DNA of 64,000 nucleotides from a virus (lineage: Duplodnaviria; Heunggongvirae; Uroviricota; Caudoviricetes), in IMG/VR virus record IMGVR_UViG_3300045988_145635. One strand, given 5' to 3'. A program made the translations under genes and the position numbers. This document shows positions 1,286 to 64,000 of the stretch, piece after piece (positions within the stretch are counted from its first letter, which is position 1; every line of letters starts with the position of its first letter). Under the pieces are notes generated by a model. The model had not been told where the DNA came from. It worked only from the letters and a program-made list of their open reading frames with translations, and did no database searches.

Positions 1286-1342
1286 GCCTGCTTCTGTATA
1301 TATAAATAACTACATATTAATTATTAATATACGGAAGCAGGC
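1286..1342. repeat. Long palindrome, copy A (17-bp arms GCCTGCTTCTGTATATA with AT-rich centre); likely factor-independent terminator
   Basis: Near-perfect inverted repeat gcctgcttctgtatata / tatatacggaagcaggc followed by TGTTTTGT; related copies at 32642-32696 and 63945-64000. Confidence 0.6.
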
Positions 1343-7834: not shown

Positions 7835-7895
7835 TAGGTAAATACTTACCTAATTTGTGTAAGAATGTAGTTACTAAACGATAAGAGAAAAACAC

Positions 7896-11536: not shown

Positions 11537-11916
11537 TGCATAAATCAGTAGCCGGTGAGTTTCAGAAGGAAGTCGATAATACCACTGATCTATTGGACGA
11601 TATTTTAAGCATTCTCGCGCTGCTTGAGGCTGGCGATTGGTCAGAACATTGCACTAAAACAGAGCTAGGCGGTCGGCTTGAAAGAGAGATTACACGACTG
11701 ATTAGCGATGCCCAAAATGATTTGTCACCTGAGCATCTCCCCTGCGATGTAGTTCTTGTGCCAGGGATGAGGATACACGAAGGCGTCAGAACGAAAACAT
11801 TATTAACCGCATTACAGAGAAGAGCCGAACTAAGCTCGCGGATAAAGTTGATGCCATCCAAAATATTTGATGTCGTCAAATTTATGCCATCGCAACATAC
11901 TGAGAGAGATAAATGA
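11533..11916 (+). CDS. Hypothetical protein
   Basis: ATGA overlap with upstream gene. Confidence 0.5.
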   Translation: MMHKSVAGEFQKEVDNTTDLLDDILSILALLEAGDWSEHCTKTELGGRLEREITRLISDAQNDLSPEHLPCDVVLVPGMRIHEGVRTKTLLTALQRRAELSSRIKLMPSKIFDVVKFMPSQHTERDK

Positions 11917-13340: not shown

Positions 13341-13730
13341 ATGGGCTTCCCTTCTCCTGCGGCGGATTATGCTGAGAGCCGTATTTCTCTTGATCAGCAG
13401 ATAATTAGACATCCTTCAGCGACCTACTTCATGAGGGCAGCTGATAGTCATCATCGTGAGGGAATATTGCAGGGCGCATTGCTGGTGGTCGATTCCTCAC
13501 TTACCCCGGTTGATGGTTCTCTGCTTGTATGCGCTCTGGATGGGGAATATCGCGTAAAAAGATACCGGAAGTATCCACGTCAGCATCTGGAGGATTTAAG
13601 AACTGGTAAGAAGGAAGCATTGCCAAAGGATGACGATGGATGCACGGGCAGCAATGCCGTGTTTGGTGTGATCACTCACATTATCAACGACGCAAGAAGT
13701 GGCGAGTTTGATGATTGTCCTGTGATGTAG
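13341..13730 (+). CDS. UmuD-prime-like S24 peptidase-family protein (HumD-like, pre-truncated UmuD mimic)
   Basis: Begins MGFPSPAADY, i.e. at the position of the UmuD self-cleavage site; conserved Ser (ADS) and Lys (VKRYRK) positions; SOS box upstream. Confidence 0.7.
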   Translation: MGFPSPAADYAESRISLDQQIIRHPSATYFMRAADSHHREGILQGALLVVDSSLTPVDGSLLVCALDGEYRVKRYRKYPRQHLEDLRTGKKEALPKDDDGCTGSNAVFGVITHIINDARSGEFDDCPVM

Positions 13731-15025: not shown

Positions 15026-17059
15026 ATGACCCAAGTCGCGAAGAAAATTCTGGTGACGTGCGCGCTGCCGTACGCTAACGGCTCAATCCACCTCGGCCAT
15101 ATGCTGGAGCACATCCAGGCTGATGTCTGGGTTCGTTACCAGCGAATGCGCGGCCACGAGGTTAATTTCATCTGTGCCGACGATGCCCACGGTACGCCGA
15201 TCATGCTGAAAGCGCAGCAGCTTGGTATCACACCGGAGCAGATGATTGGCGAAATGAGTCAGGAACACCAGACTGATTTCGCAGGCTTTAACATCAGCTA
15301 TGACAACTATCACTCGACGCACAGCGAAGAGAACCGTCAGTTGTCTGAGCTTATCTATACTCGCCTGAAAGAGAACGGTTTTATTAAAAACCGCACTATC
15401 TCTCAGTTGTACGACCCGGAAAAAGGCATGTTCCTGCCGGATCGTTTTGTAAAAGGCACCTGCCCGAAATGTAAAGCGCCAGATCAATACGGCGATAACT
15501 GTGAAGTCTGCGGCGCAACATATAGCCCGACTGAATTGATCGAGCCGAAATCGGTGGTTTCTGGCGCTACCCCGGTAATGCGTGATTCCGAACACTTCTT
15601 CTTTGATCTGCCTTCTTTCAGCGAAATGTTGCAGGCATGGACCCGCAGCGGCGCGTTGCAGGAGCAGGTGGCGAACAAAATGCAGGAATGGTTTGAATCC
15701 GGCCTGCAACAGTGGGATATCTCCCGCGATGCGCCTTACTTCGGTTTTGAAATTCCGGACGCGCCGGGCAAATATTTCTACGTCTGGCTGGACGCGCCGA
15801 TTGGCTACATGGGTTCCTTCAAGAATCTGTGCGACAAGCGCGGCGATACCACCAGCTTCGATGAATACTGGAAGAAAGACTCCACCGCCGAGCTGTACCA
15901 CTTCATCGGTAAAGATATTGTTTACTTCCACAGCCTGTTCTGGCCTGCCATGCTGGAAGGCAGCAACTTCCGCAAGCCGACCAACCTGTTTGTTCACGGC
16001 TATGTGACAGTGAACGGCGCGAAGATGTCCAAGTCTCGCGGTACCTTTATTAAAGCCAGCACCTGGCTGAATCATTTTGACGCCGACAGCCTGCGTTACT
16101 ACTACACTGCGAAACTCTCTTCGCGCATTGATGATATCGATCTCAACCTGGAGGATTTCGTTCAGCGCGTGAATGCCGATATCGTGAACAAAGTGGTTAA
16201 CCTGGCCTCCCGTAATGCAGGCTTTATCAACAAGCGTTTTGACGGCGTGCTGGCAAGCGAACTGGCTGACCCGCAACTGTACAAAACCTTTACTGATGCC
16301 GCTGAAGTGATTGGCGAAGCATGGGAAAGCCGCGAATTTGGTAAAGCTATCCGTGAAATCATGGCATTGGCTGACCTGGCTAACCGCTATGTCGATGAAC
16401 AGGCTCCGTGGGTGGTGGCGAAGCAGGAAGGGCGCGATGCCGATCTGCAGGCGATTTGCTCTATGGGCATTAACCTGTTCCGCGTGCTGATGACGTACCT
16501 GAAACCGGTACTGCCGAAACTGACTGAACGTGCAGAAGCATTCCTGAATACAGAACTGACCTGGGATGGTATCCAGCAACCGCTGCTGGGCCATAAAGTG
16601 AATCCGTTCAAGGCACTGTATAACCGTATCGATATGAAACAGGTGGAAGCACTGGTGGAAGCATCCAAAGAAGAAGTGAAAGCCACAGCCGCACCGGTAA
16701 CTGGCCCACTGGCTGACGACCCGATTCAGGAAACCATCACCTTTGACGACTTCGCCAAAGTTGACCTGCGTGTGGCGCTGATTGAAAACGCGGAGTTTGT
16801 TGAAGGCTCTGACAAACTGCTGCGTCTGACACTGGATCTCGGTGGGGAAAAGCGTAATGTCTTCTCAGGCATCCGTTCTGCTTATCCCGACCCACAGGCA
16901 TTGATTGGTCGTCACACCATTATGGTGGCTAACCTGGCTCCGCGTAAAATGCGCTTCGGTATCTCCGAAGGCATGGTGATGGCTGCTGGCCCCGGCGGGA
17001 AAGATATCTTCCTGTTAAGCCCGGATGCTGGTGCTAAACCTGGCCACCAGGTTAAGTAA
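15026..17059 (+). CDS. metG: Methionine--tRNA ligase
   Basis: HIGH motif (ANGSIHLGH), KMSKS motif, zinc knuckles CPKC/CEVC, C-terminal tRNA-binding domain; start chosen at [11 protein letters not shown] (the ORF-track start at 14897 is an upstream extension). Confidence 0.96.
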
Positions 17060-20650: not shown

Positions 20651-20777
20651 TAATGTGCAAGTGGTAATTAGTCGACAGTACGACAGCCCCGCCATCCTTA
20701 CGGGGCTTTTTTTGTATTGTAAGTACATACTTACGATCATAGAATATAAAAATAACCAAAACACTACGGAGAGTGAA

Positions 20778-21290: not shown

Positions 21291-21665
21291 ATGGGACTTG
21301 ATATCTATATCGAGACACAGCCTAAAAACGATCTGAATAACGAGGCATCCAGAAAGCGGGTTGCTTACTTCTGTAAGTTCAATGCGCTCGTTGGGTGGAT
21401 GGAGCGCAACGTAGGTGAAGTCGAAAATTGTGAGCTTTTAGAATTAACGATGAATGACATTTGTCTTCTGAAAGCTCATTTGATGCACATAAACGAAAGT
21501 AATTGCGAAGAGTACTTGCCTACTCGGGAAGGTTTTTTCTTCGGCAGTCAGGAGTACGATGAAGGTTACTGGCATGATGTGGGGGAGTTGAAAGAGCTTG
21601 TGGAAGATCTGATTAAGAACCACGACTTTCACAATAACAGACTGACCTTCTGCGCCTGGTGGTAA
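21291..21665 (+). CDS. Hypothetical protein
   Basis: AAGGAAACC RBS; conserved promoter module upstream (21217-21262). Confidence 0.5.
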   Translation: MGLDIYIETQPKNDLNNEASRKRVAYFCKFNALVGWMERNVGEVENCELLELTMNDICLLKAHLMHINESNCEEYLPTREGFFFGSQEYDEGYWHDVGELKELVEDLIKNHDFHNNRLTFCAWW

Positions 21666-25223: not shown

Positions 25224-25748
25224 TCAAAAAGGTAAAATTCGTTCAACCCAATCGAAGAAAACAAGAATTTTTCTGCCGTCTTTCAACTTAAGTGTGACTA
25301 GGCAGGCATCAACGCCATCTGACGTTCCCTCAATTTCGCGGCCGTCTGCCATGTAGACCCTTATAGATTGGCCGTTTTGATAAGCCTTGCGACATATCTT
25401 AAAAAAATCACGACGTGATGGCTGGTTGTCTACATAGTCAGGGTGTATTGTTAGTCTCCCTTTGAAATCGTAATCAATGCCATCAATTACGCCTGATTCA
25501 ATTGTGCTAATGCGCTCAAGTGGGAGCCTTATACGATTTTCTTTGTCAAATGGAGTTGGACAAAGGTCAACTTTGTTACGAGATGACATGAGACCATAAA
25601 CGTACATGCAAAACACTTGGCCGTCTTCGAGAGTGACTCTTACAGGAAATTTAGCCCTCCGCCAGAAGAGCAAGGTGCGTTCAGCATGTTCGTAGTCTCG
25701 CGGCCATACTTCAGCCGGTATGCCGTAGGTGATATCTTTCGTCGTCAT
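25224..25748 (-). CDS. Hypothetical protein
   Basis: Start placed at the internal Met so the gene abuts the upstream lipoprotein gene. Confidence 0.5.
   Translation of the reverse strand: MTTKDITYGIPAEVWPRDYEHAERTLLFWRRAKFPVRVTLEDGQVFCMYVYGLMSSRNKVDLCPTPFDKENRIRLPLERISTIESGVIDGIDYDFKGRLTIHPDYVDNQPSRRDFFKICRKAYQNGQSIRVYMADGREIEGTSDGVDACLVTLKLKDGRKILVFFDWVERILPF
25231..25282 (-). repeat. Promoter/leader direct repeat, copy 2 (overlaps the 3' end of gene 25224-25748)
   Basis: ~52 bp near-identical to 24865-24916. Confidence 0.6.
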
Positions 25749-25752
25749 ATCA

Positions 25753-26172
25753 TTATAAAGTGGTTGGCAATATGTCCATTGTACCATCCCAGGTAGTGAA
25801 AACCCGATATGTTTTCGAATCGCCCTGCTTTAGCTTTATTTCTCGTTCCATCCTGGAGGGGTTAAATGCGCAAAGACCTGAACTTTCAATTGATGTCCCA
25901 ACGATCCACTCTCCTTCGTTAAGGTAGAAAGTTGCTTTTTCACCAGGTTCTAGCTTTGCAGCCGTTTCTCCATTGATGAAAATGGAAGCGTTACATGCAG
26001 AACCAACCAGCCCTTTGTCTCGAACTATTGTTAGACTAGACTCATGTGGTGTTTGATATTTAAATATTCTGCTTTGAGGTGCATCCTTTGCCTTTGAAAT
26101 AGATATAGACGAAGACGAACACCCAATTAGTGACGTGGTTAGCATTAGAATCATTAAGTTTTTTGCTTTCAT
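25753..26172 (-). CDS. Lipoprotein (candidate superinfection-exclusion type)
   Basis: Signal peptide with lipobox LIGC; function inferred only from being a prophage-encoded lipoprotein. Confidence 0.5.
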   Translation of the reverse strand: MKAKNLMILMLTTSLIGCSSSSISISKAKDAPQSRIFKYQTPHESSLTIVRDKGLVGSACNASIFINGETAAKLEPGEKATFYLNEGEWIVGTSIESSGLCAFNPSRMEREIKLKQGDSKTYRVFTTWDGTMDILPTTL

Positions 26173-26199
26173 ATTTGATTGACTATGATTAGTGAGTGG

Positions 26200-26748
26200 C
26201 TACATGCTATTCTGAGTTCTGTTGTAAATATCTTTTAAGAGGTCATCTCTTTTTATGTTTTTACAGACTTTGTCGAAACTTAATTCACCTGATGATATGC
26301 AGTTGTTGTATTTTTCGATAAAATTTTTTAATGCCAGATGATTTTTGAAAAGAAAAGAAAAACCATAGGGTGACGTGCTATCTCTTATCCATTTCCGAGC
26401 ACTGGGATAAGTGTATAAATTTGAATGCAACTCCAATTTTCCAGGGGCCACGCCATCACAGGAGTCCATAATAGCGAACATTTTTGATATATCAAAAGGA
26501 TAAAAGACTACTCCGCAATTTGTCCTGGTGCCTTCAATATCTTTCACGTATATATAGTGTTCATAACGATCTTTACGTGAAGTCTTTAACCTGTATTGTA
26601 TTAGTTTGTGCTCTTCTTTTTGAGAAGAAGTTAGGTGTCTAGGGTTTTCTAAGCAAGATTTCTGTTTATTTTTTTTATGATAAAAATCCACACAGTCCTT
26701 TATTTCCTTTGCACTTAAAAATCTCTTATCAAAAGGTAAGTGACCCAT
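26200..26748 (-). CDS. Hypothetical protein (AT-rich)
   Basis: 182-aa ORF; no motif recognised. Confidence 0.45.
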   Translation of the reverse strand: MGHLPFDKRFLSAKEIKDCVDFYHKKNKQKSCLENPRHLTSSQKEEHKLIQYRLKTSRKDRYEHYIYVKDIEGTRTNCGVVFYPFDISKMFAIMDSCDGVAPGKLELHSNLYTYPSARKWIRDSTSPYGFSFLFKNHLALKNFIEKYNNCISSGELSFDKVCKNIKRDDLLKDIYNRTQNSM

Positions 26749-26888
26749 TCATGCCTCCGGTTCTAAACATAGGTAAGCCTACAAATATCGTTCAGCCAAT
26801 CAAGATCTTTTTTCAGCCGGAGGTATATGTTTCAAAAAACGTGACGAATGTCACATGCAGGTGCTCTCATACACCTGCATGTAGACTA

Positions 26889-29361: not shown

Positions 29362-29443
29362 AAACCTCTTTCCTTAGTGCCTTTTGTATGTTATTTGGCT
29401 ATTATAATAAGTAAGTGATTACTTAGTGGATTGTAGCAATAAA

Positions 29444-32621: not shown

Positions 32622-32719
32622 TCTGGGAGCTTATTTAAAGACCTGCTTCTGTATATATAAATAATAAGTAACTTATTAAATATATACGGAAGCAGGCTTA
32701 GTAAGACATGCCCAGACCT
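32622..32719. repeat. Long palindrome, copy B (core 32642-32696) with outer inverted repeat GGTCTGGG / CCCAGACC
   Basis: cctgcttctgtatatataaataataagtaacttattaaatatatacggaagcagg; lies just upstream of the terminase genes. Confidence 0.65.
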
Positions 32720-32813: not shown

Positions 32814-33446
32814 ATGACGGTCGAAAAAGACGAGGTAAAAACTCGCCTGACACCAGCGGAGTGGGCCGAAGCTGAAGCCAAATGGACGTCAGGCGAATAT
32901 ACACTCTCAAAGCTGGAGGAAGAGTACGGCATTCGTCGTGAAACACTCTCCAGACATTTCAAAAAGCGAGGATTAGAGAAAGGCGCGGACTCTGTTGGGA
33001 AGATGGTTCGTGAGTCTCTTAAATCTGACGCAGAGCTTCGCGCTAAAGCCCGTGCGGAAAAGATAGAAGAACGTCGTACACGTTATGACGGCTGGGCGTA
33101 TGCGTTGGGGCAGATGGTGATGGTCGAAGTCACTACGGCCAAACGTGAGGGTAAGCCTTTAGGGGCGATTGAGGATTCTCTCAAGAGCTTACAGAGAGCC
33201 AGTAATACCCTTGCAAAATGCTTTGAAGTTTCGTCCAAAGCATTGGGCATGGATCATGCGGAAAATGACGAGGAAGAAATTCCGAACCTGGTATTTGGTG
33301 AGCTTACGCCTTCCCAGGTGGCGAAATTACGTCAGGAAGACGACGAGCCTGAAATCATCGATGACGAATTGCTTGAGACGTTGGAAGAAGAAGCTCTAAG
33401 CGAATTTGATGCGACAGATGATGGAAGTGAAGGGGAGGACGAATAA
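32814..33446 (+). CDS. Terminase small subunit (putative)
   Basis: HTH-like N-terminus (LSKLEEEYGIRRETLSRHFKKRG), acidic tail, directly upstream of and TAATG-coupled to the large subunit. Confidence 0.6.
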   Translation: MTVEKDEVKTRLTPAEWAEAEAKWTSGEYTLSKLEEEYGIRRETLSRHFKKRGLEKGADSVGKMVRESLKSDAELRAKARAEKIEERRTRYDGWAYALGQMVMVEVTTAKREGKPLGAIEDSLKSLQRASNTLAKCFEVSSKALGMDHAENDEEEIPNLVFGELTPSQVAKLRQEDDEPEIIDDELLETLEEEALSEFDATDDGSEGEDE

Positions 33447-34702
33447 TGGCAATCCCGTCCTCGCTCAGTCTTGTGCAACTGCATTCTGGACAGATGAAAG
33501 TCTTCCAGTCTCCGCATCGATTTAAAGTTGTTTGTGCTGGTCGACGCTGGGGAAAATCCCGGTTGTCGATCTCCACTATTATTCGTGCGGCGGCAAAGGA
33601 AAAAAAGCAAAGGGTCTGGTATGTCGCTCCTACTTACCAGATGGCTCGTCAGATTTTGTGGGACGATCTACAGGAAGTTCTGCCCCGTAAGTGGGTTAGG
33701 AAAAAGAACGACACCACGATGACAATCGTGTTGAAGAACGGTTCGGAGATCGCCCTCAAAGGTGCTGATAAACCTGACACTCTGCGCGGCGTAGCGTTGC
33801 ATTTTGTAGTGCTTGATGAATTTCAGGATATGAAGGCTGACACCTGGTACAAGGTGTTACGACCTACTCTTTCATCGACACGCGGCGGTGCACTGATCAT
33901 TGGTACGCCAAAAGGCTTCTCGGAATTTCACAAACTGTGGACTATAGGCCAGAACGTAGAGCTGCAAAGAAAGGGACAGTGGAAGAGCTGGCAGTTTGTA
34001 ACTGCTGATTCGCCGTTTGTGCCTACGGCGGAAATTGAAGCTGCTAAGAACGATATGGACCCTAAATCGTTCGCTCAGGAGTACCTGGCCAGCTTTGAAA
34101 ATATGTCCGGGCGCGTTTACTACCCGTTCGATCGAAACGTGCATGTTAAACCGCTTCAGTTCAACCCTCGGTTGCCTATATGGGTAGGACAGGACTTCAA
34201 CATTGACCCGATGTCTTCCGTAATTTTGCAACCTCAGCCAAATGGTGAGCTATGGGCAATTGATGAATTGGTGCTCTTTTCCTCTAACACGGCAGAGGTT
34301 TGTGATGAGCTTGAGAGACGCTTCTGGCGCTGGAAATCACAGATAACGGTATTTCCAGATCCGGCAGGTGCTTATCGCCAACATGCTCGCGGGGAGTCTG
34401 ACGTCGACATATTCAAAGAGAAGGGATTCTTACGTGTCGATTATTCGAAAAAGCACCCGCCAATTGCGGATCGTGTTAATGCTGTTAACCGAATGCTGAT
34501 GACCGCATCTGGAGATATCCGGCTGTATATCGATCCGAAGTGCAAGCATTTGATTGATTCATTGGAAAAAGTCATCTACAAGCCTGGAACACGAGATATG
34601 GATAAGACAGGTGGCATTGAGCATAGTGCAGACGCATTGGGCTATCCAGTACATCGTAGGTATCCAGTCAAAAACCGTGTTATTCTTGGTGGCTCTCGAT
34701 AG
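33446..34702 (+). CDS. Terminase large subunit
   Basis: Walker A VVCAGRRWGKS, Walker B HFVVLDEF, C-terminal nuclease-like region; position before the portal. Confidence 0.75.
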   Translation: MAIPSSLSLVQLHSGQMKVFQSPHRFKVVCAGRRWGKSRLSISTIIRAAAKEKKQRVWYVAPTYQMARQILWDDLQEVLPRKWVRKKNDTTMTIVLKNGSEIALKGADKPDTLRGVALHFVVLDEFQDMKADTWYKVLRPTLSSTRGGALIIGTPKGFSEFHKLWTIGQNVELQRKGQWKSWQFVTADSPFVPTAEIEAAKNDMDPKSFAQEYLASFENMSGRVYYPFDRNVHVKPLQFNPRLPIWVGQDFNIDPMSSVILQPQPNGELWAIDELVLFSSNTAEVCDELERRFWRWKSQITVFPDPAGAYRQHARGESDVDIFKEKGFLRVDYSKKHPPIADRVNAVNRMLMTASGDIRLYIDPKCKHLIDSLEKVIYKPGTRDMDKTGGIEHSADALGYPVHRRYPVKNRVILGGSR

Positions 34703-34728
34703 GTAAGTAATTATCTAAGGTTATTCAA

Positions 34729-36303
34729 ATGGAATTGAACGACAAACAAATTAAGGATCTGGTGGTGCGACGCCACCCGGAATACGAAAAGAAAAAAGAA
34801 CATTGGGACTTCCTCGCCAGCACTTACGCTGGCGGGCGTGGTTGGTTTACAGACAATATCTTTCGTTACTTTAAAGAGGGAGATCAGGAGTTTAAGGAGC
34901 GAGTTGAGCGTGCTTATCGCTTCAACCACACTCGTGAGGTGGTAAACCTCATCAACAAATATCTCTTTAAAGAAGACATTCATAGAAATATCGAAGAGGC
35001 ACCAGAGCAGATCCGCAATTTCTGGAAACGTGCGACTCGCCAGAATGCCTCTATTGACTCATTTATGGCCGCTATTGATTTGCAGTCGTCTATTTACGGT
35101 CGCATATGGGTTGTTGTCGATAGCACGATGAGTGGTGATGTTGAGTCAGTAGCTGACGAGAAAAAGAAAGATGCTCGCGCCTACGCCTACTGGATTTCAC
35201 CTCAGCAAATGCTGGATGTGGCATGGGACGACGACGGGAATATGTTATGGGCGTTAATTGTGGAAGTCGCTCGCGATGACGCAGATCCTTTTACTTCTAC
35301 AGGTCAGGAATACCAACGTTATCGTCTGTGGACACAAAACGAGTGGTATCTGTTCCGTGAGGAAGTGAAGAAGGGGGCTGGTGGAGCAGGTCGTCGTCAG
35401 GCAAAAGTTATTTTAGAGGACAGCGGCGCGCATAATCTCGGCGTAGTTCCTGTGTTTCCTGTTGATTGTATTGGAGAAAGTGAATCACCGTATTTCAGCC
35501 CATCGTTGATCGATGATATCGCTTATCTTGATCGTGCGGTTGCAAACTATCTGTCAAACCTTGATGCCATTATTCAGGATCAGACATTTAGCCAGTTGGC
35601 TATACCGGTACAGTCGCTTTTACCTGGTGATGAAAACCACACTAAAGTGCTTGAAATGGGCACAAAGCGAGTCTTCACCTACGATTCTGAAGGTGGAAAC
35701 CAGCCGTTTTATCTGTCACCAGACCCGAAACAAGCTCAGATGATCATCACTACGATTAAGACGGTGATTAACGAAATCTACCATTCAGTTGGTGTAGCTG
35801 GTGAGCGAACGAAGCAGGACAACGCACAGGGAATCGATAATTCATCTGGTGCCGCAAAAATGTATGACTTCCAGCGTGTAAATAGCTTGCTTGTCACAAA
35901 AGCAGAGCGTCTGGAAAGGGCTGAACGCCAAATCATGCTACTGGTTGCGAAATGGATGGGGGTAGATCTGGACGAAGACCACTCTTTAATTGCGTATCCA
36001 GAAAGTTTCGATATTCGTGGCCTTACTGATGAATTTTCTGTTGCCGAGAAACTGTCATTACTTCAGGCACCGGACTCTGTACGTCGTCACCAGATGGAAA
36101 TGCTTATTGAGAAGATTTTCCCGAACATTACTGAGGCGATGAAAAAGGAATTTGATAAAGATCTCTTGAATTTTCCTCCAAAAAATGATCTAAATACCCT
36201 TGAAAATAAGTCAGTACTTACTTATGATCGTGGTGCAGCCCAAGAAAGCGGGCAAGATCAACCCCGAGGGAATGGGGACTCATCTACTCAAGAGAACGAG
36301 TGA
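34729..36303 (+). CDS. Portal protein
   Basis: 524 aa, position between terminase and scaffold; motif B site upstream. Confidence 0.7.
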   Translation: MELNDKQIKDLVVRRHPEYEKKKEHWDFLASTYAGGRGWFTDNIFRYFKEGDQEFKERVERAYRFNHTREVVNLINKYLFKEDIHRNIEEAPEQIRNFWKRATRQNASIDSFMAAIDLQSSIYGRIWVVVDSTMSGDVESVADEKKKDARAYAYWISPQQMLDVAWDDDGNMLWALIVEVARDDADPFTSTGQEYQRYRLWTQNEWYLFREEVKKGAGGAGRRQAKVILEDSGAHNLGVVPVFPVDCIGESESPYFSPSLIDDIAYLDRAVANYLSNLDAIIQDQTFSQLAIPVQSLLPGDENHTKVLEMGTKRVFTYDSEGGNQPFYLSPDPKQAQMIITTIKTVINEIYHSVGVAGERTKQDNAQGIDNSSGAAKMYDFQRVNSLLVTKAERLERAERQIMLLVAKWMGVDLDEDHSLIAYPESFDIRGLTDEFSVAEKLSLLQAPDSVRRHQMEMLIEKIFPNITEAMKKEFDKDLLNFPPKNDLNTLENKSVLTYDRGAAQESGQDQPRGNGDSSTQENE

Positions 36304-36324
36304 TAAGTAACAAAAGGAATTTTT

Positions 36325-37212
36325 ATGAATCTGTGGCAAATGCTTTTGGCCCGTCGTGGTCTGATGGATGTCGCTGAAGCGCATGAGCGTGGAGGCGCTG
36401 GCGGTGTAGCTGCTGATAATGAGCAGAGTACACAAGATCCTGACAAACAGGGTGAACAAAAAGAGCAGCCGAAGGGCGATGACGAATACGCTGGCATGAC
36501 TCAGGAAGAGTTACTGGCCGAGCTTCGTAAAACCAAGAAAGCTGGTGCTGAACTGCTGAAGGAGAACATGAAGCGCAAAGAGAAAGAGCGCACATTGGCC
36601 GATCAGCTTGCTCAGTACGGTGATATCGATCCGGCTCGTGCTCGCCAGCTTTTAGAAGCTGAACAGGCCGCAGAAAACGCACGTCGTGAGGCGGAGCAAG
36701 CTGAACTGGAGCGTCGTGGTGAGTTCGATGCTGTTAAAAAACAGATGATCGAAGCACACCAGGCAGAGCTAGCACAGCGTGACGAACGTTATGCAGCACT
36801 GGAAAGTGAAAACGCATCACTGAAATCTCAATTAGTCGAGATGACCGTGGGCGCTTCCTTCAGTAACTCTCTCTTCCTACGTGACAAAGTTCTGATGACC
36901 CCGGCAAAAGCCCGCGTGATCTACGGTTCTCATTTTGAAGTGGGTGAAGACGGTAGCGTAGTGGGTTATGACAAACCGGCAGGTCACAAAGAACGAGCTG
37001 TTCTGGTTGACGGTGAAGGTAAGCCGTTGCCGTTTGAATCCGCGATTGAACGCATTGTGCGGGCAGATCCGGAAGCTGACGCATTGATGCGTAGCGAAGC
37101 CAAGCAGGGTGTAGGCTCACATTCCAAATCGACCTACACAATATCCCAACCGAAGAACAAGTCGACTATGGATAAGTTGGCCTCCGGTCTGGGGAAAATT
37201 GGACTTAAGTAA
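36325..37212 (+). CDS. Scaffolding protein (coiled-coil)
   Basis: Ala/Glu/Arg-rich coiled-coil composition; between portal and capsid genes. Confidence 0.55.
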   Translation: MNLWQMLLARRGLMDVAEAHERGGAGGVAADNEQSTQDPDKQGEQKEQPKGDDEYAGMTQEELLAELRKTKKAGAELLKENMKRKEKERTLADQLAQYGDIDPARARQLLEAEQAAENARREAEQAELERRGEFDAVKKQMIEAHQAELAQRDERYAALESENASLKSQLVEMTVGASFSNSLFLRDKVLMTPAKARVIYGSHFEVGEDGSVVGYDKPAGHKERAVLVDGEGKPLPFESAIERIVRADPEADALMRSEAKQGVGSHSKSTYTISQPKNKSTMDKLASGLGKIGLK

Positions 37213-37237
37213 CATCTAAATCAAAGGGAATTGATAG

Positions 37238-38113
37238 ATGCCATTACTGCGTGAAGAAGCTGAAAAGCTGTCTAACAACGAACTTGAACAGGGTGTGATC
37301 GAAACTATCATCGATCGCGATGACCTGTTTGCCATCCTGCCTTTTATGAAAATTAATTCAAAGGCATATCTGTACAACCGTGAAAAAACGCTGAGTGAAG
37401 CTACCTTCATCGACGTTAACGACACCATCCCTGAAGGTGCAGCAACCTTCGAAGAATGCGTTGCGAAACTGCGTATTCTGGCTGGTGACGTAGACGTTGA
37501 TAAATTCCTGGCGACCACTATGGCCGACACCAACAACCAGTTGGCTATTCAGGTTCGTCAGAAAGTTAAAGGTCTGGCTCGTGCGTTCCGTCGCAACCTG
37601 ATTTTGGGTGACTCCAGCTCCAACAACAAGGCGTTTGACGGCATTCCACGCCTGATGCACGCAGATCAGAAGATCGATATCGCCGGTGCATCTATGACTT
37701 TCTCTATGTTCGACGAACTGGTCGATGCGGTGAAAGATCTTGGTGCTGACTGCATCATGATGCGTTCAGAGCACCTGCGTGCTTACCGTGCGCTGCTGCG
37801 TACAGTAAACGTAGGTCCGTCTGAAATCATGATGGAGAACTTCGGTCGTCCGATGCTGTGTCATAACGGCGTTCCGTTCATCATCAACGACTTCATCCCG
37901 ACCGATGCTGGCAAAGCAAGCATCTACTGCCTGCATCTGTCAGAAGAGAACGGCGTTACTGGTCTGTATGGCGGCGATAACGCAGGTATCGTTGTTGAAA
38001 ACATTGGTACTGTACAGAACAAAGACGCAGTACGTACCCGTGTGAAGTGGTACTGCTCTCTGGCGAATAAGCACGATAAGGCTATCGCTGCACTGACCAA
38101 TGTAAAAATTTAA
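37238..38113 (+). CDS. Major capsid protein
   Basis: Position and size (291 aa); followed by a strong terminator. Confidence 0.6.
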   Translation: MPLLREEAEKLSNNELEQGVIETIIDRDDLFAILPFMKINSKAYLYNREKTLSEATFIDVNDTIPEGAATFEECVAKLRILAGDVDVDKFLATTMADTNNQLAIQVRQKVKGLARAFRRNLILGDSSSNNKAFDGIPRLMHADQKIDIAGASMTFSMFDELVDAVKDLGADCIMMRSEHLRAYRALLRTVNVGPSEIMMENFGRPMLCHNGVPFIINDFIPTDAGKASIYCLHLSEENGVTGLYGGDNAGIVVENIGTVQNKDAVRTRVKWYCSLANKHDKAIAALTNVKI

Positions 38114-38147
38114 TCAGTGTGGTAGATAAGCAATTATCTATGTTTAA

Positions 38148-38173
38148 GGGTGGGCTATACGCCCACCCTTTTT
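38148..38173 (+). terminator. Terminator after the capsid gene
   Basis: GGGTGGGC-TATA-GCCCACCC followed by TTTTT. Confidence 0.6.
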
Positions 38174-38186
38174 GTAGGAGCGAGAA

Positions 38187-39107
38187 ATGCCAGAACAAAA
38201 GATGAAGATTACGGAAGAGGCATTTTCGGATTTTACGGGGCATATGTGCCGCGCCGGATTTACCAATTCTATCTCCGATGAACCTTTAACCGAGCGGCAA
38301 CAAAGTCAGCTATCTGCTTGTTTGCAGGCGGTTCCCCTCTCCCAATCCGTAAACATAACCCCGGCTTCACCGTCAGTTTTGGTTGGGAAAACTGTTCAAC
38401 TTAGTGCAGGTATTAGTATGGGTAAGAGTGCCAGTTCATTCACCTGGAAGTCAGCGAATGATCAAATTGCAACCGTTAACGGCACTGGATTAGTAACTGG
38501 TGTAGCACCAGGCAAAGTAAAAATTACTGCAACTGATCAGGAAACCCAGCTTTCCGCTTCAGTGGAAGTCACCGTAAATCCGGTAGCCGTTCAATCCGTA
38601 ACGGTAACGCCAGACTCAACCTCTGTTGAGAAAGGGAAATCAGTCAGTCTGAAAGCGAATGTTCAGCCGTCAAATGCGACGAATAAGGCTGTTACCTGGT
38701 CTTCCAAAAATGAAGATAAGGCAACGGTAGACCAGAGCGGGAACGTTACTGGTGTAGAAGTTGGCACTGCGACGATTGAGATCGTTTCCCAAGATGGCAG
38801 CAAAAAGGCAACTGCAACGGTGGAAGTAACTGCGCCTGTTGTAGCTGTTACCGGCGTCGAAATCGACCCAAATAGCACAACCGTTGAGGCAAACAAAACT
38901 GTTCAGCTGACCGCAAATGTCGAGCCGGCAGGAGCAACAAATAAAACCGTTACTTGGGAATCCAAAAATACCGAGTTTGCAACGGTGGATAGCGAAACCG
39001 GTGTTGTAACTGGCGTTGCGGCTGGTACTGCCACAATCGAGGTTACTACCCAAGATGGTAGCCACAAAGCGACAGCGACCGTAGAAGTCACTGCTGCACA
39101 GGAATAA
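38187..39107 (+). CDS. Ig-like (Big_2) repeat protein, probable capsid decoration protein
   Basis: Three tandem ~85-aa Ig-like repeats (VTVTP/VTGVE ... ATVD ... GTATIE). Confidence 0.6.
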   Translation: MPEQKMKITEEAFSDFTGHMCRAGFTNSISDEPLTERQQSQLSACLQAVPLSQSVNITPASPSVLVGKTVQLSAGISMGKSASSFTWKSANDQIATVNGTGLVTGVAPGKVKITATDQETQLSASVEVTVNPVAVQSVTVTPDSTSVEKGKSVSLKANVQPSNATNKAVTWSSKNEDKATVDQSGNVTGVEVGTATIEIVSQDGSKKATATVEVTAPVVAVTGVEIDPNSTTVEANKTVQLTANVEPAGATNKTVTWESKNTEFATVDSETGVVTGVAAGTATIEVTTQDGSHKATATVEVTAAQE

Positions 39108-41308: not shown

Positions 41309-41692
41309 GTGTTTATTGAAGCGTTTGCAAGTTTGATGCAGAAGGCAAAGATTGGCACGGTCGGGACTGACATTTTCTGTCACTACTTGCCTGCCAATGT
41401 GAAATCTGGCGTCCTGCTTATTAACCCAAATACCGGTATCAGCATCGATCATGAGCTACAGGGCTTTTATCACGAATCATTCACAATCATTGTGCGTGGT
41501 TCGTCAATTACTACGACGGTTGAGAAAGCCAATAAAATCATTGAGATGTTTCCAGTAGAGGAAACGGAATCTGGTGGTGTTTATTTTCGACTGGTACGAC
41601 CGATGGCGATGCCAATCATTTATCCCAAAAATGATGGGGCATTAATAGAAGCAGGCATTCCTGTTGAATTTGCTGGCTATTTATTGAATTAA
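41309..41692 (+). CDS. Tail terminator-like protein (putative, GTG start)
   Basis: GAGAGG RBS then GTG; position immediately before the tube gene. Confidence 0.4.
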   Translation: MFIEAFASLMQKAKIGTVGTDIFCHYLPANVKSGVLLINPNTGISIDHELQGFYHESFTIIVRGSSITTTVEKANKIIEMFPVEETESGGVYFRLVRPMAMPIIYPKNDGALIEAGIPVEFAGYLLN

Positions 41693-41766
41693 GTTAATCG
41701 GTAAGTATATACTTACTATTAGCGCAATGAATGCGTAGAATTAACGGAAAAAGGAGTTTTCCATCA

Positions 41767-42513
41767 ATGTCTAATACCCATGTAAAAAACATCAAACTTG
41801 GTGCCTGTAAGGTGTCGTTTGGTGGTGTGGATTTGGGTTACACCAAAGGTGGTGTTCAGGTTGAAGTAGCCACTGAAACGCTGAAAGTCACCGTCGATCA
41901 GTTGGGGCAGACCGTAATTTCCGAATTAGTTCAGGGGCGCAACATTACCATCACCGCGCCTCTGGCTGAGTCTGTACTCCAAAACATGGTTGACCTGATG
42001 CCTGGTTCTACTCTGAGCGAAGATGACAACTCTGTCACGATCACATCTGCACAGGGCGTTAACCTGATTGATGTGGCGAAGGAGCTGGTTCTGACTCCGC
42101 AGGACACCACCGACTATGTGTTGACCATCCCGAAAGCGGCAACCGCGGGCAACTTCACTATGACCTACCAGTCTGATGATGTTCGTGTGTTCTCTGTTCA
42201 GTTCAGCGCATACCCGGATGATGAAGGCGTTCTGGGCAAAATGAGCGGCCCTAAACCGGTAAAAACTGTGTCGATCTCACCGGAATCTCCAACCGTAAAA
42301 GCTGGAGAAACTGTGCAACTGACAGCCGAAATCACTCCAGCTGATGCCGCAGACAAAACCGGTGTTTGGGAATCCGAAGACCAGGAAAAGGCCACGGTAG
42401 ATCAAACGGGTCTGGTACGTGGTGTGGCGCAGGGTTCTACAAATATTTCCTTCACCAGCAATAGCGGTGGTAAGAAGGCAACTAAGTCAGTAACGATTAA
42501 CCCCGCAGATTAA
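41767..42513 (+). CDS. Major tail tube protein with C-terminal Ig-like (Big_2) domain
   Basis: AAGGAG RBS; C-terminal VSISPESPTVKAGETVQLTAEI ... ATVDQTG Ig-like repeat (lambda gpV-like layout); terminator after. Confidence 0.65.
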   Translation: MSNTHVKNIKLGACKVSFGGVDLGYTKGGVQVEVATETLKVTVDQLGQTVISELVQGRNITITAPLAESVLQNMVDLMPGSTLSEDDNSVTITSAQGVNLIDVAKELVLTPQDTTDYVLTIPKAATAGNFTMTYQSDDVRVFSVQFSAYPDDEGVLGKMSGPKPVKTVSISPESPTVKAGETVQLTAEITPADAADKTGVWESEDQEKATVDQTGLVRGVAQGSTNISFTSNSGGKKATKSVTINPAD

Positions 42514-42568
42514 TCAGTAATTAAGCAGAGGCTCAGGATGGGCCTCTCTTTTAAAAGGATTTTAACCA

Positions 42569-42886
42569 ATGACCAAATTACTCGATCTCGATTCCATTCT
42601 GCCTCCGAAGAAAAGCATCAAATTTGGCGGTCAGGAATATCCCATCGTTGAAATGACGGTAGGTCTGTTCGTTTCCATCAAGCAGATGGAAGGCAAAGAT
42701 CTCATGAACATGTCTCCTGTTGAGCAAGTGACAGCTTATGCAGATCTGGTTCGTAAGGTTATCCCTTCAGTACCTGACGAAGTTCTTGAAAAACTGACTG
42801 TTCCGCAACTCCAGCAGATCTTCACCTTCGCTATGGAAGTGATTGATGAAGAAAACGAAAAAGCGGCTGGCGAAGGGGCAAAGTAA
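42569..42886 (+). CDS. Tail assembly chaperone (gpG-like)
   Basis: Position before the tape measure; a downstream -1 frame stays open to 43236. Confidence 0.6.
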   Translation: MTKLLDLDSILPPKKSIKFGGQEYPIVEMTVGLFVSIKQMEGKDLMNMSPVEQVTAYADLVRKVIPSVPDEVLEKLTVPQLQQIFTFAMEVIDEENEKAAGEGAK

Positions 42887-46200: not shown

Positions 46201-47821
46201 AGCGCAACAGAAACTGGCAGCCGGATACCAGAAGGCTCTGGACAAAGCCGATCAGCTTATGGGGCAAATGGGTGAAAGCTCTAAGGCTACGGTATCGTTT
46301 GATCAGTCTCTTCGCGATACAACGAAATCGCTGACAGATTTGGCTAATGCGGTTCCTAACGAGTTCATCACTCAAGAGATGATCGACAAGGCGAAAAAAC
46401 GTCTTGAAGACCTCAAAAATGCGACACCTGAATATCGCGAGATGTTTAATCGCCGCAATGTTGAGCAGATGATCTCCACTTGGGCACCGGAGGCGGATTC
46501 CATTATTAGTGCTGGCTATACGCCGTCTCGCGAAGAGAAAGTTGCTGATTTCGAAGACACCTACAACCGCAATCTCAAAGCGTTGATAGAACTTCGTGAT
46601 AAGGCGTCTGATCCTAAAGTCGTGGCGCTTTATACAAAGAAAATCAATCAACTTATTGCTGCTGGCAATACCGCGCTCATTAAAGAGACAGGGACTGCGA
46701 CGCAGAAGTTGGCACTGGAATACGAAAACCTGGCAGAGCAGATCGAAAGCACCTGGACTGATTTGTTTAGTGGCTTAACGGATGTCCTGACTGATTTCGT
46801 TATTAACGGGAAGATGAGCTTCTCCAGCCTGTCTCAGTCCATTTTGAAAGATATCACCAATATGGTCGTGAAGTCGCAGATCACGCTGCCTCTAATGAAC
46901 ATGTTGGGGATGGGAACCACCGCAGCTGGTAGTTCACAGAGTGGTAATTTGCTCACCGGGGTTGCTTCCGCCGTTGCCAATCAAGGGGTACGAATGGGCA
47001 ACACTGTTAACGGCGACAAGTCGGTAGGAGAAGCCACGAAGGAGACGTCCAGTTCGGTAACTGGATTGGGGCAAACGACACAGCAGACCACCAGCGCAAT
47101 TGGCACAGCAACAAATGCGATTGGTAGCTGGGTATCAGGGCTATTTGATAGCACCGAAGCCAAAGATGCTGAGACAAAAGCAGTGAAGGATTCCATCTTC
47201 TCGATGCAGAACCTCAGCTCTGTTACCGGCGCTCTGTCTGCCGCGTTTGCAATGCTTGGAGCTAATGCTTCCGGCTCTGGTAATAAGTGGTTGAATTTCG
47301 GCGCGACAGTTGCATCTGGTTTGGTTTCAGTATGGGCTGGTGGTGGATTCGATGGATTGATGTCCGGTTCTTCTGGCTCAACTTCCGGGTTCAACAATCT
47401 GACCAGTTCTGCTGCCGATGGCACGAATGGTATTCCTGCAATTCCGAAGTTTGCAAATGGTGGCATATTCGGAAAAGACGGCGTGATCCCGCTCCGGGCA
47501 TACCAGAAAGGCGGTATCGCCAACTCACCTCAATTGGCGTTGTTTGGGGAAGGCGATATGAATGAGGCGTATGTTCCATTGCCTGATGGTCGAACAATCC
47601 CTGTAACGCTCAGTACCGATGGTATGAGTGGAGGAGGAAATGTTCTTTCTCCTGTATCAATTGAGATCAACGTCCATAGTGACGGTAGCACAACTGAATC
47701 CGGCGATACAGAAAGCATATGGAACAATGCCGCTCAACGGATGAAAGCAATCGCGCTTGAGACTATCGCTCAAGAGAAACGCCCTGGCGGATCACTCAAC
47801 CCAAACACTCAACGTAACTAA
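43244..47821 (+). CDS. Tail tape measure protein
   Basis: ~1525 aa, coiled-coil-rich, Gly-rich C-terminal region; terminator after. Confidence 0.8.
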   Translation: MSQNVEFILSLEDKQFTASIDRAGKLLTRFGEQVTKPAQKIQTFERSLGSVARIIGVLESKLDSTADKLQDVAAGFELASDATRKMRGNITSLNSGLKALIERVDTTTSSVDKLTASLRKVQSELNDFSDWATYASKSASRFGTEVKEASVSVSGMNTRLNTTTKRLSNWGVTTSQAAEGLKKVREQMDEVIGRQQLISKPVRVRTSGSGDGGSGRRSGASGHSGKSNEGGMFSGLRGNIFLLGEIGDAARTVTDIMFGWQKPIVEAAAEMERMRVMLRGLNKEKSNPGQAAADDMKYIVDMAQNAPFAMQALTDSFVKFRSAGLDPTDGSLKALVDSVARFGGDSELLKRAAVAVQQMSGKGVVSMEELRQQLGEAVPNAMQAMADAAGITMGELTKAVASGTVEAKQALSLMFVGLRAENENAAKDMMQTYTGALAQLQTSFTLFADRVGQAGYLDSLSKGMKELASIMNSAEGISFANSLGSGLTTAIDGLRQLAQWLAKNQELVINLGKVVAAMVAFKLMRAGIMGVVGAGSQMVSTFATMATAIQTPFNLGATAVTRFNRAARMGLAPIPSLIFAIRGAITGLKGAFAGLTAFIAANPIGFVFTAAMTAVAGLITYMTMLRSETSKVVDEIRKIPEAMTAAKRAQMAEYKARLEQQITQKEQQLKSGEKVVYGPGMAGTTVKIDQDERKRIETGLNDLRKELDKTTGAIERGDTAVAKRLAKDAAESQIEKILEENKDFAATFVKSRQEALEKIQKIKDDGSLSDDEKNKLLAPLRETVNKSYLKPAQELVDSLSSRKNAVEGQIATLNDQLEKAKKEGNTEQIKKLQGSIRGYQENLEVVAQELTQAEFKRDNAAKSGNGLMSVNGDVLGLGTTDKAAQKALAQYMRNQMDSATYQRTLPDGTPMMDFEGKPIIGPKQLKTQLNLQKASSASSLEKMSDEERAAAIAALTKAREQDAAAAEKAAQRSANASQRAAKKEQAAQQKLAAGYQKALDKADQLMGQMGESSKATVSFDQSLRDTTKSLTDLANAVPNEFITQEMIDKAKKRLEDLKNATPEYREMFNRRNVEQMISTWAPEADSIISAGYTPSREEKVADFEDTYNRNLKALIELRDKASDPKVVALYTKKINQLIAAGNTALIKETGTATQKLALEYENLAEQIESTWTDLFSGLTDVLTDFVINGKMSFSSLSQSILKDITNMVVKSQITLPLMNMLGMGTTAAGSSQSGNLLTGVASAVANQGVRMGNTVNGDKSVGEATKETSSSVTGLGQTTQQTTSAIGTATNAIGSWVSGLFDSTEAKDAETKAVKDSIFSMQNLSSVTGALSAAFAMLGANASGSGNKWLNFGATVASGLVSVWAGGGFDGLMSGSSGSTSGFNNLTSSAADGTNGIPAIPKFANGGIFGKDGVIPLRAYQKGGIANSPQLALFGEGDMNEAYVPLPDGRTIPVTLSTDGMSGGGNVLSPVSIEINVHSDGSTTESGDTESIWNNAAQRMKAIALETIAQEKRPGGSLNPNTQRN

Positions 47822-48199: not shown

Positions 48200-48281
48200 G
48201 TATCTGGATAAGTAAGTACTAATTTACTATCATTGTGGCGCTGACAGGATGTTAGCGCCTACTTATTTCAAGGATGAAACA

Positions 48282-55097: not shown

Positions 55098-55190
55098 TGG
55101 TGGAAAAAAAATTTTATATCGGTAAAAATAGGTAAGTATTTACTTAATGGCGGGCAAGGATAACCCGCCAAATCAAGGAGCATATTCAAC

Positions 55191-59216: not shown

Positions 59217-59418
59217 TTTAGACATTATTTATATGGCTGTGAGGTTTAAAATGCGATCTCACAGCCGCAATCATAGGGATATATTAGTGAGTTACTAGAT
59301 ACGAATTTGAACAGCCGTTAAACGGTATATACATAGATAGGTAAGTACACACCTACAACAAAAGGGTGAAATGTGATATAAATCCGCCATCCCGATTTGA
59401 CTTTTCATGGAGGAAAAC

Positions 59419-62655: not shown

Positions 62656-63014
62656 TGTCCATGAAAATGGGTGACCTAGCAAAGCGCAAAGAGCCTGATG
62701 CACCGGCTAAGAACACAACTCCTTTGCGCCAACCAGTCAGACCACAGGGACGCCCGACTCGTGGCAAAGAGAAAATTAAAAGCCGCACAATGTCACTGGA
62801 GGACGAATACTTCGAACTGCTGGAGATGATGAAGTTCATCCCTCGCTTCGAGAAGTTCACTCGTTCTGACGTGATTCGTGCTGCTATTTTCCATCTTGCG
62901 GAGAAGACACCGCAGGAAATCGAGGACATCGTGAAACTTAACGAGGCGATCACCGCTGCCGATGTCACGATGCGTACCGATGAAATCAAACGAGAGTTGA
63001 TGAAGAAAGGTTAA
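62655..63014 (+). CDS. Small RHH-type centromere-binding protein (ParG-like)
   Basis: TAATG-coupled to the ParA-like gene; basic N-terminal tail plus C-terminal beta-alpha-alpha pattern. Confidence 0.55.
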   Translation: MSMKMGDLAKRKEPDAPAKNTTPLRQPVRPQGRPTRGKEKIKSRTMSLEDEYFELLEMMKFIPRFEKFTRSDVIRAAIFHLAEKTPQEIEDIVKLNEAITAADVTMRTDEIKRELMKKG

Positions 63015-63018
63015 AAAT

Positions 63019-63051
63019 CATGCATTGGCGCGTACATTGCGCCAATGCATG
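63019..63051. terminator. Bidirectional hairpin terminator between convergent genes
   Basis: 13-bp perfect stem CATGCATTGGCGC / GCGCCAATGCATG. Confidence 0.55.
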
Positions 63052-63066
63052 AGTACAATGTCAGTT

Positions 63067-63834: not shown

Positions 63835-63944
63835 TATTGCATCTCTTTGCTACTGACTAATGCGTTCTATTTTACACATAAGTTTTTAATCAATTTAACA
63901 GGCTCAAAGTGTAGAGCTTCTGGGCGTCTAAGACGACAAGTTAT

Positions 63945-64000
63945 GCCTGCTTCTGTATATATAAATAATAAGTAACTTATTAAATATATACGGAAGCAGG
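63945..64000. repeat. Long palindrome, copy C (truncated by window end)
   Basis: Identical to copy B over the visible length; left flank TTCTGGGCGTCT resembles copy A flank TTCTGGCGTCT. Confidence 0.6.

Follow-up and report, generated by a model that had tools for sequence, protein, structure and literature searches.

Dispersed near-palindromic sites in SSU5-like phage-plasmids as candidate operators of an element-encoded XRE-type regulator

This study concerns a family of short near-palindromes, here called family B, in a 64,000-nucleotide stretch of DNA (IMG/VR record IMGVR_UViG_3300045988_145635; hereafter the window) that is part of an SSU5-like phage-plasmid. The closest described systems come from phages and plasmids. 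The P1 annotation lists operators such as Oref, Omat, Ossb, Oc4, OrepL, and Olpa, which are of the 17-bp asymmetric ATTGCTCTAATAAATTT type and are read by the repressor C1. The stoperators of cluster A mycobacteriophages (L5 gp71) are 13 bp long, asymmetric, and placed in one orientation; reportedly, two to three dozen of these repressor sites occupy short intergenic regions, including regions within operons far from promoters. A third system, the P1 late promoters, depends on the activator Lpa and uses a 9-bp “−22 box” (AAGTGACTT or AAGTTACTT) at a fixed 4 nt upstream of a one-sided −10 element, before late genes only. Finally, KorA and KorB of IncP plasmids use palindromic operators of two families in many intergenic regions for the coordinated repression of most operons, and KorB binds 12 dispersed palindromes.

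Family B shares traits with each of these. As in P1, the carrier is a plasmid prophage of about 100 kb in which one repressor would control many dispersed operators at sigma-70 promoters of lytic and regulatory genes. Unlike the P1 operators, however, family-B sites are palindromes of 18–20 bp with a small XRE-type protein as candidate reader, they also lie inside late operons, and a matrix built on their enterobacterial version finds no site in 50 kb of P1, nor in 50 kb of the lytic relative nickie. Like stoperators, they occur in many short intergenic regions genome-wide, including some inside operons, whereas they are symmetric and not consistently oriented, and for family B a roadblock function is a proposal. 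Because both the P1 C1 operators and the stoperators are asymmetric, family B is a member of neither class. The likeness to Lpa promoters lies in a short inverted repeat with the core AAGT..ACTT, between −35 and −10 elements before structural and lysis genes; the differences are that family B is twice as long (18–20 bp), symmetric including its flanks, present also before early genes, and without an Lpa homolog that we could find. The two operator families of the Kor system are comparable to family B and a second palindromic family, family A, while KorB as a ParB homolog belongs to another protein family than our candidate, and no link of the B sites to ParB-like genes was found. We found no description of the family-B motif or of an SSU5 regulatory circuit in the literature, and a 2024 review on lysis-lysogeny control of other phage-plasmids names no SSU5-group repressor or operator. 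Family B would add a palindromic case to the few genome-wide repressor networks (P1 C1, mycobacteriophage stoperators).

In our assessment family B is likely a DNA site that is specific to the element and bound by a protein. Symmetric operators for a dimeric regulator encoded by the element, probably a repressor, fit the evidence better than the late promoter, activator site, or RNA processing site proposed in a preliminary description of the window.

Over positions 33400–38200, the window shares 99.3% identity with Escherichia phage Cyrano, which is pLF82 of E. coli LF82; the values for Salmonella phage SSU5 and for Klebsiella phage-plasmids such as pJN2-26 are 84% and 81%, respectively. Window positions 32680–63012 align with Cyrano 1–30332 (terminase to lysis, a toxin-antitoxin pair, and parA), and positions 1–32679 with Cyrano ~76.8 to 108.4 kb. 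Gene names in the window were taken from the Cyrano, SSU5, and pJN2-26 records. The SSU5-like phage-plasmids, which include the pKpn, pHCM2, pMT1, and pSLy3 groups as well as A. baumannii pABTJ2, rank among the commonest phage-plasmids of clinical Enterobacterales and Acinetobacter, with resistance genes in some of them. Further comparisons were made with A. baumannii p107 (NZ_CP035046; fully scanned) and with nickie, a Pseudomonas phage that is closely syntenic with the SSU5-like phage-plasmids.

All ten sites that had been listed from the sequence alone are present and belong to one family (consensus aTAGGTAAGTACTTACCTAt; matrix scores 18.3–30.0 bits); a single coordinate had to be moved, as the perfect copy of GTAAGTATATACTTAC lies at 41701–41716 and not at 41709–41727. 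Their common core is the 18-bp near-palindrome TAGGTAAGTACTTACCTA (Enterobacteriaceae version), with TAGGTAAGT and ACTTACCTA as its half-sites, and it extends weakly to ~24–26 bp (atRA-core-TYat), the flanks being conserved as a mirror image. A motif search for TAGGTAAGTA with at most one mismatch gave 12 matches in the window against 1.9 expected, a count that was reached in 0 of 100 shuffles. With a weight matrix trained on SSU5 and pJN2-26 sites alone, and hence independent of the window, 15 positions score at least 14 bits (0.03 in shuffles). These collapse to 14 separate sites, all with at least 15.6 bits, four of which (starting at 1303, 1680, 20716, and 36207) had not been listed before. 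Twelve of the 14 lie between predicted open reading frames (ORFs), or 13 if the Cyrano annotation is used, in which the 20716 site is intergenic. The sites are given below; “promoter-like” denotes a sigma-70-like hexamer pair.

34700–34717: focal site TAGGTAAGTAATTATCTA, 19.9 bits; begins on the TAG stop codon of terL and overlaps the Shine-Dalgarno sequence of the portal gene, leaving 11 nt to the portal ATG (34729); no overlapping promoter-like match at the 9/12 threshold; the terL/portal junction keeps a site in Cyrano, SSU5, and pJN2-26, and p107 has the variant TCAGTCACTACTGACTGA.
640–657: site TAGGTATTTACTTACCTA, 26.8 bits; 12 nt before the start (670) of a dam-like adenine-methyltransferase gene; a −10-like AAAAAT ends at the start of the motif, so that the site would cover the transcription start.
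1303–1320: B-like core, 16.9 bits; centre of a 55-nt hairpin element (1287–1341); membership in family B uncertain.
1680–1697: weaker site TAGATAAGTACAAACTAT, 17.4 bits; left half good, right half degenerate.
2856–2873: site TAAGTAAGTGTTTACCTA, 26.4 bits; directly after the stop (2858) of an RNase H-like ORF; orthologues at Cyrano 79652, SSU5 79905, and pJN2-26 16843.
7835–7852: site TAGGTAAATACTTACCTA, one mismatch, 30.0 bits, the best in the window; at the stop of a DUF4942 methylase-like ORF, with the next gene (7896) 44 nt away.
20716–20733: B-like site ATTGTAAGTACATACTTA, 15.6 bits; before CYRAN_107 in the Cyrano annotation; overlaps TTGTAA-17-TAGAAT; the orthologues (SSU5 93166, pJN2-26 28032) come after a terminator-like hairpin.
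29408–29425: site TAAGTAAGTGATTACTTA, 19.7 bits; divergent region between a uvsW-like helicase operon (minus strand) and parB (plus strand), inside the spacer of TCCACT-18-TATAAT (29430 to 29401), a promoter-like minus-strand match that faces the helicase operon; p107 has a cognate variant at this junction (69364).
36207–36224: site TAAGTCAGTACTTACTTA, 27.8 bits; within the last 100 nt of the portal ORF, before a head gene (36325); fills the spacer of the best sigma-70-like match of the region, TTGAAA-17-TATGAT at 36200–36228; identical in Cyrano, SSU5, and pJN2-26.
38123–38140: site TAGATAAGCAATTATCTA, 18.3 bits; after the major capsid gene stop (38113) and directly before a terminator-like hairpin (38148–38164) with T run; the order capsid gene, site, hairpin is also found in SSU5, pJN2-26, and A. 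baumannii.
41698–41715: site TCGGTAAGTATATACTTA, 23.8 bits; contains the perfect 16-mer GTAAGTATATACTTAC; before the tail-tube gene (41767); overlaps TTGAAT-18-TATACT at 41684–41713.
48209–48229: site TAAGTAAGTACTAATTTACTA with a 3-bp insertion, 21.8 bits; between tail genes M and L; promoter-like TGGATA-17-TATCAT at 48205–48233, and a hairpin (48237–48259) with T run downstream.
55129–55146: site TAGGTAAGTATTTACTTA, 27.5 bits; between a J-like tail gene and the tail-fibre gene (55191); followed by a GC hairpin, GGCGGG..CCCGCC (55152).
59338–59355: site TAGGTAAGTACACACCTA, 22.8 bits; before the holin and lysis genes; p107 has cognate variants before its holin at 105082 and 105159.

The family is conserved in related elements: at Cyrano, SSU5, and pJN2-26 junctions orthologous to those of the window a site is retained while its exact sequence drifts. 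With up to four mismatches, these three genomes contain 18, 22, and 23 sites, respectively, as compared to 0.07–0.27 in shuffles. Those located between predicted ORFs number 17, 17, and 19, and two of the pJN2-26 sites are perfect copies. When the Cyrano annotation is used and five mismatches are allowed, 27 of 28 matches are intergenic, while intergenic DNA makes up 13% of the genome. The overall density is ~25 sites per 105-kb genome, 14 of them in the window. Among 2.9 million IMG/VR contigs, the exact 18-mer occurs in 31 copies, and all 31 are on SSU5-like contigs.

Family-B sites are found in 23 of the 80 Cyrano intergenic regions of at least 20 bp, including the 26-bp terL/portal gap. 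Seven of these regions are in the head-tail-lysis module (26% of the genome), where they precede the portal gene, the gene after it, and the decoration, tube, L, fibre, and holin genes. The other 16 precede replication, recombination, nucleotide-metabolism, methylase, and partition genes (such as SSB, sbcD, nrdA, thyX, dam, and parB/uvsW). The preliminary description had placed family B before late and structural genes, a view that does not hold for a set of ~23 sites with just seven in that module, and the ten sites first listed already mix gene classes; since replication and nucleotide-metabolism genes are preceded by sites as often as structural ones, family B is not a late regulon. Its separation from family A, on the other hand, stands: the Cyrano intergenic regions include 23 with a B site and 13 with an A site, and none has both.

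The symmetry of the motif is a property of the DNA. Half-sites are almost never found singly, and the better half may be on either side (plus:minus 11:3, 7:7, and 14:10), with no consistent orientation. Mirror positions vary independently of each other, as the observed numbers of Watson-Crick combinations are close to those in shuffled data (pair 2/15, 31 vs. 32.0; pair 3/14, 54 vs. 53.0; pair 7/10, 41 vs. 46.4), and mismatches of the G·U type (61) and A·C type (47) are balanced. The −10-like TATCAT at the right edge is mirrored on the left, with TAnnnT at position 16 in 41 right and 34 left flanks of 93 sites, and the flanks contain no other −10, and no −35, at a fixed distance. Together, independent halves, balanced mismatches, and mirror-symmetric flanks are consistent with a dimeric protein binding to DNA and do not fit an RNA hairpin or a unidirectional promoter. 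Given that nearly all genes point in one direction, one-sidedness would be expected of a promoter, or of an activator box tied to a −10, and family B is two-sided. The motif was also rejected as a sigma-70 promoter in itself, its flanks having no fixed −35 or −10 and its −10-like ends being symmetric.

Distant relatives carry the site in other versions. There are four across the SSU5 supergroup, one each in Enterobacteriaceae, Providencia, p107, and pABTJ2. The Providencia plasmid version, TAGGTATTTnAATACCTA, has 11 sites (0.1 expected), and that of p107, TCAGTCAGTACTGACTGA, has 31, alongside 0 of the enterobacterial type. The p107 sites share junctions with the enterobacterial ones (terL/portal, after the capsid gene, before the holin gene, helicase/parB, before thyX), and the pABTJ2 version is TTAGTAAGCGCTTACTAA. 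Two versions thus occur in one host species, A. baumannii, which argues that the protein reading them is encoded by the element. A site for a host factor is ruled out by this observation and by the restriction of all exact IMG/VR copies to SSU5-like contigs. The first 50 kb of nickie contain no recurrent palindrome. Its intergenic regions (for example 21574–21622, 41939–42005, and 47547–47617) have −10-like TATACT or TACAAT boxes within variable GC-rich inverted repeats, at junctions where the phage-plasmids carry family-B sites.

Family-B sites often coincide with promoter-like sequences. Between 32 and 52 kb of the window, 3 of 9 promoter-like matches coincide with family-B sites, and in the whole window 5 of 36 plus-strand matches overlap them, compared to ~0.4 expected by our own estimate from the share of sequence that the sites occupy. 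A sixth overlap is on the minus strand and faces the minus-strand helicase operon. Co-directional overlap, in the spacer or at +1, is thereby found for 6 of the 14 window sites; the remaining 8, including the focal one, are without it. In four genomes, the motif is repeatedly found in one of two positions: filling the spacer, as in TTGAAA-a-TAAGTCAGTACTTACT-TATGAT, or starting right after the −10 and so covering the start point. Both are typical of repressors.

As for the protein, each temperate lineage has a small XRE-type helix-turn-helix gene adjoining its integrase gene, represented in Cyrano by the following.

Cyrano 42188–42574 (outside the window): CYRAN_45, candidate binder, adjoining the integrase gene.

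CYRAN_45 matches the profile PHROG 8 “transcriptional regulator” (E = 1e-11) and Pfam HTH_19 at 19.7 bits, below the cut-off of 30.2, and the regulator profile weakly matches an 8bny chain deposited as “Immunity repressor protein” (E = 0.005). In the LF82 lysogen the gene is expressed at ~10 times background, and the authors of that study label it a putative repressor (PMC9928086). Right behind its sigma-70-like promoter, TTTACA-16-TAATAT, comes a B-type site, GGTAAGTGCTTACC, at +1, an arrangement conserved in three clades (Cyrano, pJN2-26, Kluyvera/pMT1). In Klebsiella CP125183 and both Acinetobacter lineages, two to three cognate sites lie upstream of the regulator gene. Although overall identity between the regulators of CP125183 and Cyrano is only 38%, the former retains the helix NANN(L/I)SLIKSG, and its element has the same motif. 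In contrast, the p107 regulator (41% identical overall) has another helix, RPNVLSMIKSG, and another motif, as does the Providencia regulator (39% identical over 99 aligned residues; SHNNISMLKSG). From these comparisons we infer that the recognition helix tracks the motif version, with four specificity classes.

The distribution of the regulator is narrow. It is absent from nickie and from all other non-SSU5-like phage records, except for one weak (28%) match on a 7.5-kb faecal contig. A scan of genome contigs gave six loci (four enterobacterial, one in a distant Lichenibacterium relative, and one on a short metagenome fragment), with no B-type match at the Lichenibacterium locus, and a scan of viral contigs gave close relatives only. 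We put it at about even odds that family-B sites are dyad-symmetric operators for the element's own XRE-type regulator (the CYRAN_45 family) acting as a repressor; who binds and whether binding represses are both read from sequence patterns.

Other proteins encoded in the window were considered as binders and set aside, as none could be linked to the motif: an FljA-family protein (25224–25787, minus strand), a UmuD-like S24 peptidase (13341–13730), an 88-aa protein before terS, ParB, and several hypothetical proteins. The first is a full-length member of its family (Pfam PF03614, “repressor of phase-1 flagellin”, E = 4e-80), and its gene ends the minus-strand helicase gene cluster in a stretch that is ~85% identical to Cyrano, compared to ~98% elsewhere in the window; its target might be host flagellin or the element itself. 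The second (plus strand; 129 aa) consists of the S24 peptidase only, is UmuD/HumD-like with no DNA-binding domain, and corresponds to CYRAN_98, which in the LF82 lysogen has ~148 normalised reads against a background of ~10, and more in macrophages.

If CYRAN_45-type proteins are the repressor, they would, in the plasmid-prophage state, occupy family-B sites before early and late lytic genes alike. Host RNA polymerase would be blocked where a site fills the −35/−10 spacer or covers the start point, and at junctions without a promoter, such as terL/portal, the bound repressor might hinder read-through. The repressor would also limit its own promoter. Beyond this, it is conceivable, if doubtful, that across the SSU5 supergroup, from Enterobacterales to Acinetobacter, one small XRE repressor silences a whole 100-kb lytic genome through ~25–30 palindromic operators at conserved junctions, by promoter occlusion and operon roadblocks, that the operators and the recognition helix have diverged together into four or more immunity specificities, with two coexisting in A. 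baumannii, and that family A is a separate control layer. Were that so, the motif version would predict which resistance-carrying elements exclude or tolerate one another. The operator family and its candidate repressor offer a testable regulon, a sequence-based immunity grouping, and handles for inducing or curing these elements.

Several observations weigh against repression by this regulator. The most serious for the assignment is that SSU5 has neither the integrase nor the regulator gene, yet has 22 good sites; we take this for a recent deletion, but it would also fit a different binder. About half of the sites are without a recognisable sigma-70 promoter, and for the post-capsid site, which precedes a terminator, it is not apparent what a repressor would do. 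The likeness of the core AAGTACTT to the P1 −22 box (AAGTnACTT) keeps an activator under consideration. The link to the regulator itself is drawn from co-occurrence, position, and a correlation of helix and motif over just four specificity classes. Using the per-gene RNA sequencing (RNA-seq) table for Cyrano (PMC9928086, S1 Table), we compared junctions with B sites, with A sites, and with no motif by Mann-Whitney tests, and found no significant difference in basal level, macrophage induction, or junction step (p = 0.12–0.85). In LB, genes after B sites are at background, as are other lytic genes (p = 0.12), and their induction in macrophages is no different from that of controls (p = 0.42). 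CYRAN_46 (divergent from the regulator), CYRAN_56, and CYRAN_60, each with a B site upstream, are among the plus-strand genes most induced in macrophages, which is suggestive only as support for repression.

A rather unlikely alternative is that the sites belong to activator-dependent promoters as in P1, in which a phage-encoded activator binds the palindrome between −35 and −10 to switch on lytic genes. Besides the core, one recurring arrangement (−35 at −4, −10 at +19) recalls the P1 box, as it puts the centre of the B site ~22 bp upstream of the start. The −10-like TATACT boxes of nickie are at the same gene junctions, which may accordingly be promoters, and the retention of sites in SSU5 without the XRE regulator is as expected for another reader. 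However, a tblastn search with P1 Lpa against the window, Cyrano, SSU5, pJN2-26, p107, and nickie found no homolog (best E = 1.4), although the element may encode a structural one. The motif and its −10-like ends are also mirror-symmetric (the 41 vs. 34 flanks above) where genes run nearly all one way, and a −10 at a fixed, one-sided distance is not seen. An activator would be unworkable at the several sites that lie at +1 downstream of a −10 or 3–12 nt before a start codon within operons, and one site is directly upstream of a terminator. The late promoter or activator site of the preliminary description is for these reasons disfavoured, and an Lpa-type late promoter in the strict sense was rejected: the likeness of the core is real, but it comes with no Lpa homolog, no one-sided −10, and no restriction to late genes.

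It is unlikely that family B serves some other DNA-binding protein of the element, one whose role is structural or global, such as either of the two ParB-like proteins (in a KorB-like network of partition and silencing) or the small protein divergent from the regulator. In every lineage examined, parB has a B site directly upstream, and the symmetric sites are spread across the entire replicon. Nickie, however, keeps a ParB-like gene in the same place and has no B-type palindrome in the 50 kb read, and confinement to intergenic regions together with promoter overlap points to control of gene expression. The small divergent protein could share operators with the regulator, by analogy with Cro in lambda.

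An RNA-level element (an mRNA hairpin for processing, stability, or translational control) is very improbable, for although nearly all genes are on one strand so that sites are transcribed in one sense, several sites are 3–14 nt before start codons, and several have GC-rich hairpins downstream (38148, 48237, 55152), there is neither mirror covariation at any variable pair nor an excess of G·U over A·C mismatches, the palindrome includes a conserved GTAC at its centre, stems are weak (focal site −1.2 kcal/mol, z = −1.2), the distance to the start codon spans 3 to 131 nt, no Rfam family matches, and sites within promoter spacers would be absent from the RNA made by that promoter.

The second palindromic family, GAAAACAAnTTGTTTTC, is probably the family A of the preliminary description.

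Window starts 3760, 4489, 9030, 17142, 17193, 18633, 19828, 20313, 21217, 21980, 32734, 32759, and 61937: family-A sites, 17 bp each.

Enterobacterial genomes have ~16–21 family-A sites each, mostly 10–35 nt before start codons and behind a −10-like TAATTAAACACC. In p107 there are two weak matches, and nickie has similar sequences, ACAAGTTGT, upstream of terS.

The 55-nt hairpin-forming element around the B-like core at 1303, CCTGCTTCTGTATATAT...ATATATACGGAAGCAGG, is present in three copies in the window (1287–1341, 32642–32696, and 63946–64000), and two or three copies are also found in Cyrano, SSU5, and pJN2-26. The folding energy as single-stranded DNA is −15.2 kcal/mol (z = −9), and the AT-rich sequence in the middle, AATAAGTAACTTATT, is similar to both the family-B core and the P1 −22 box. 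The element might serve as a terminator in both directions or as a special site for binding. A different repeat, (G)ATGTATGGAATCAT, is found in Kluyvera and Y. pestis pMT1-type plasmids (~5282, 10878, 11595–11605, 16347, and 17371), with 4–6 copies in 20 kb around the integrase and regulator genes, one pair forming a large inverted repeat; the commonest repeated words of the window do not include it.

Remaining observations concern gene content. In pABTJ2, a gene annotated as a sigma-70-family sigma factor (15110–15775) lies between those for a MoxR-type ATPase and dnaE, and no sigma-factor gene is annotated at the corresponding position in Cyrano or SSU5. Window positions 25739–26775 and 63013–64000 have no Cyrano counterpart by blastn and represent variable cargo, the former beside the FljA-like gene and the latter beyond the parA operon. 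The tail-fibre ORF (55191–59216) contains, at 57236–57635 and 58287–58799, diverged 120-nt (40-aa) tandem repeats, with further copies ~0.8–1.2 kb downstream.

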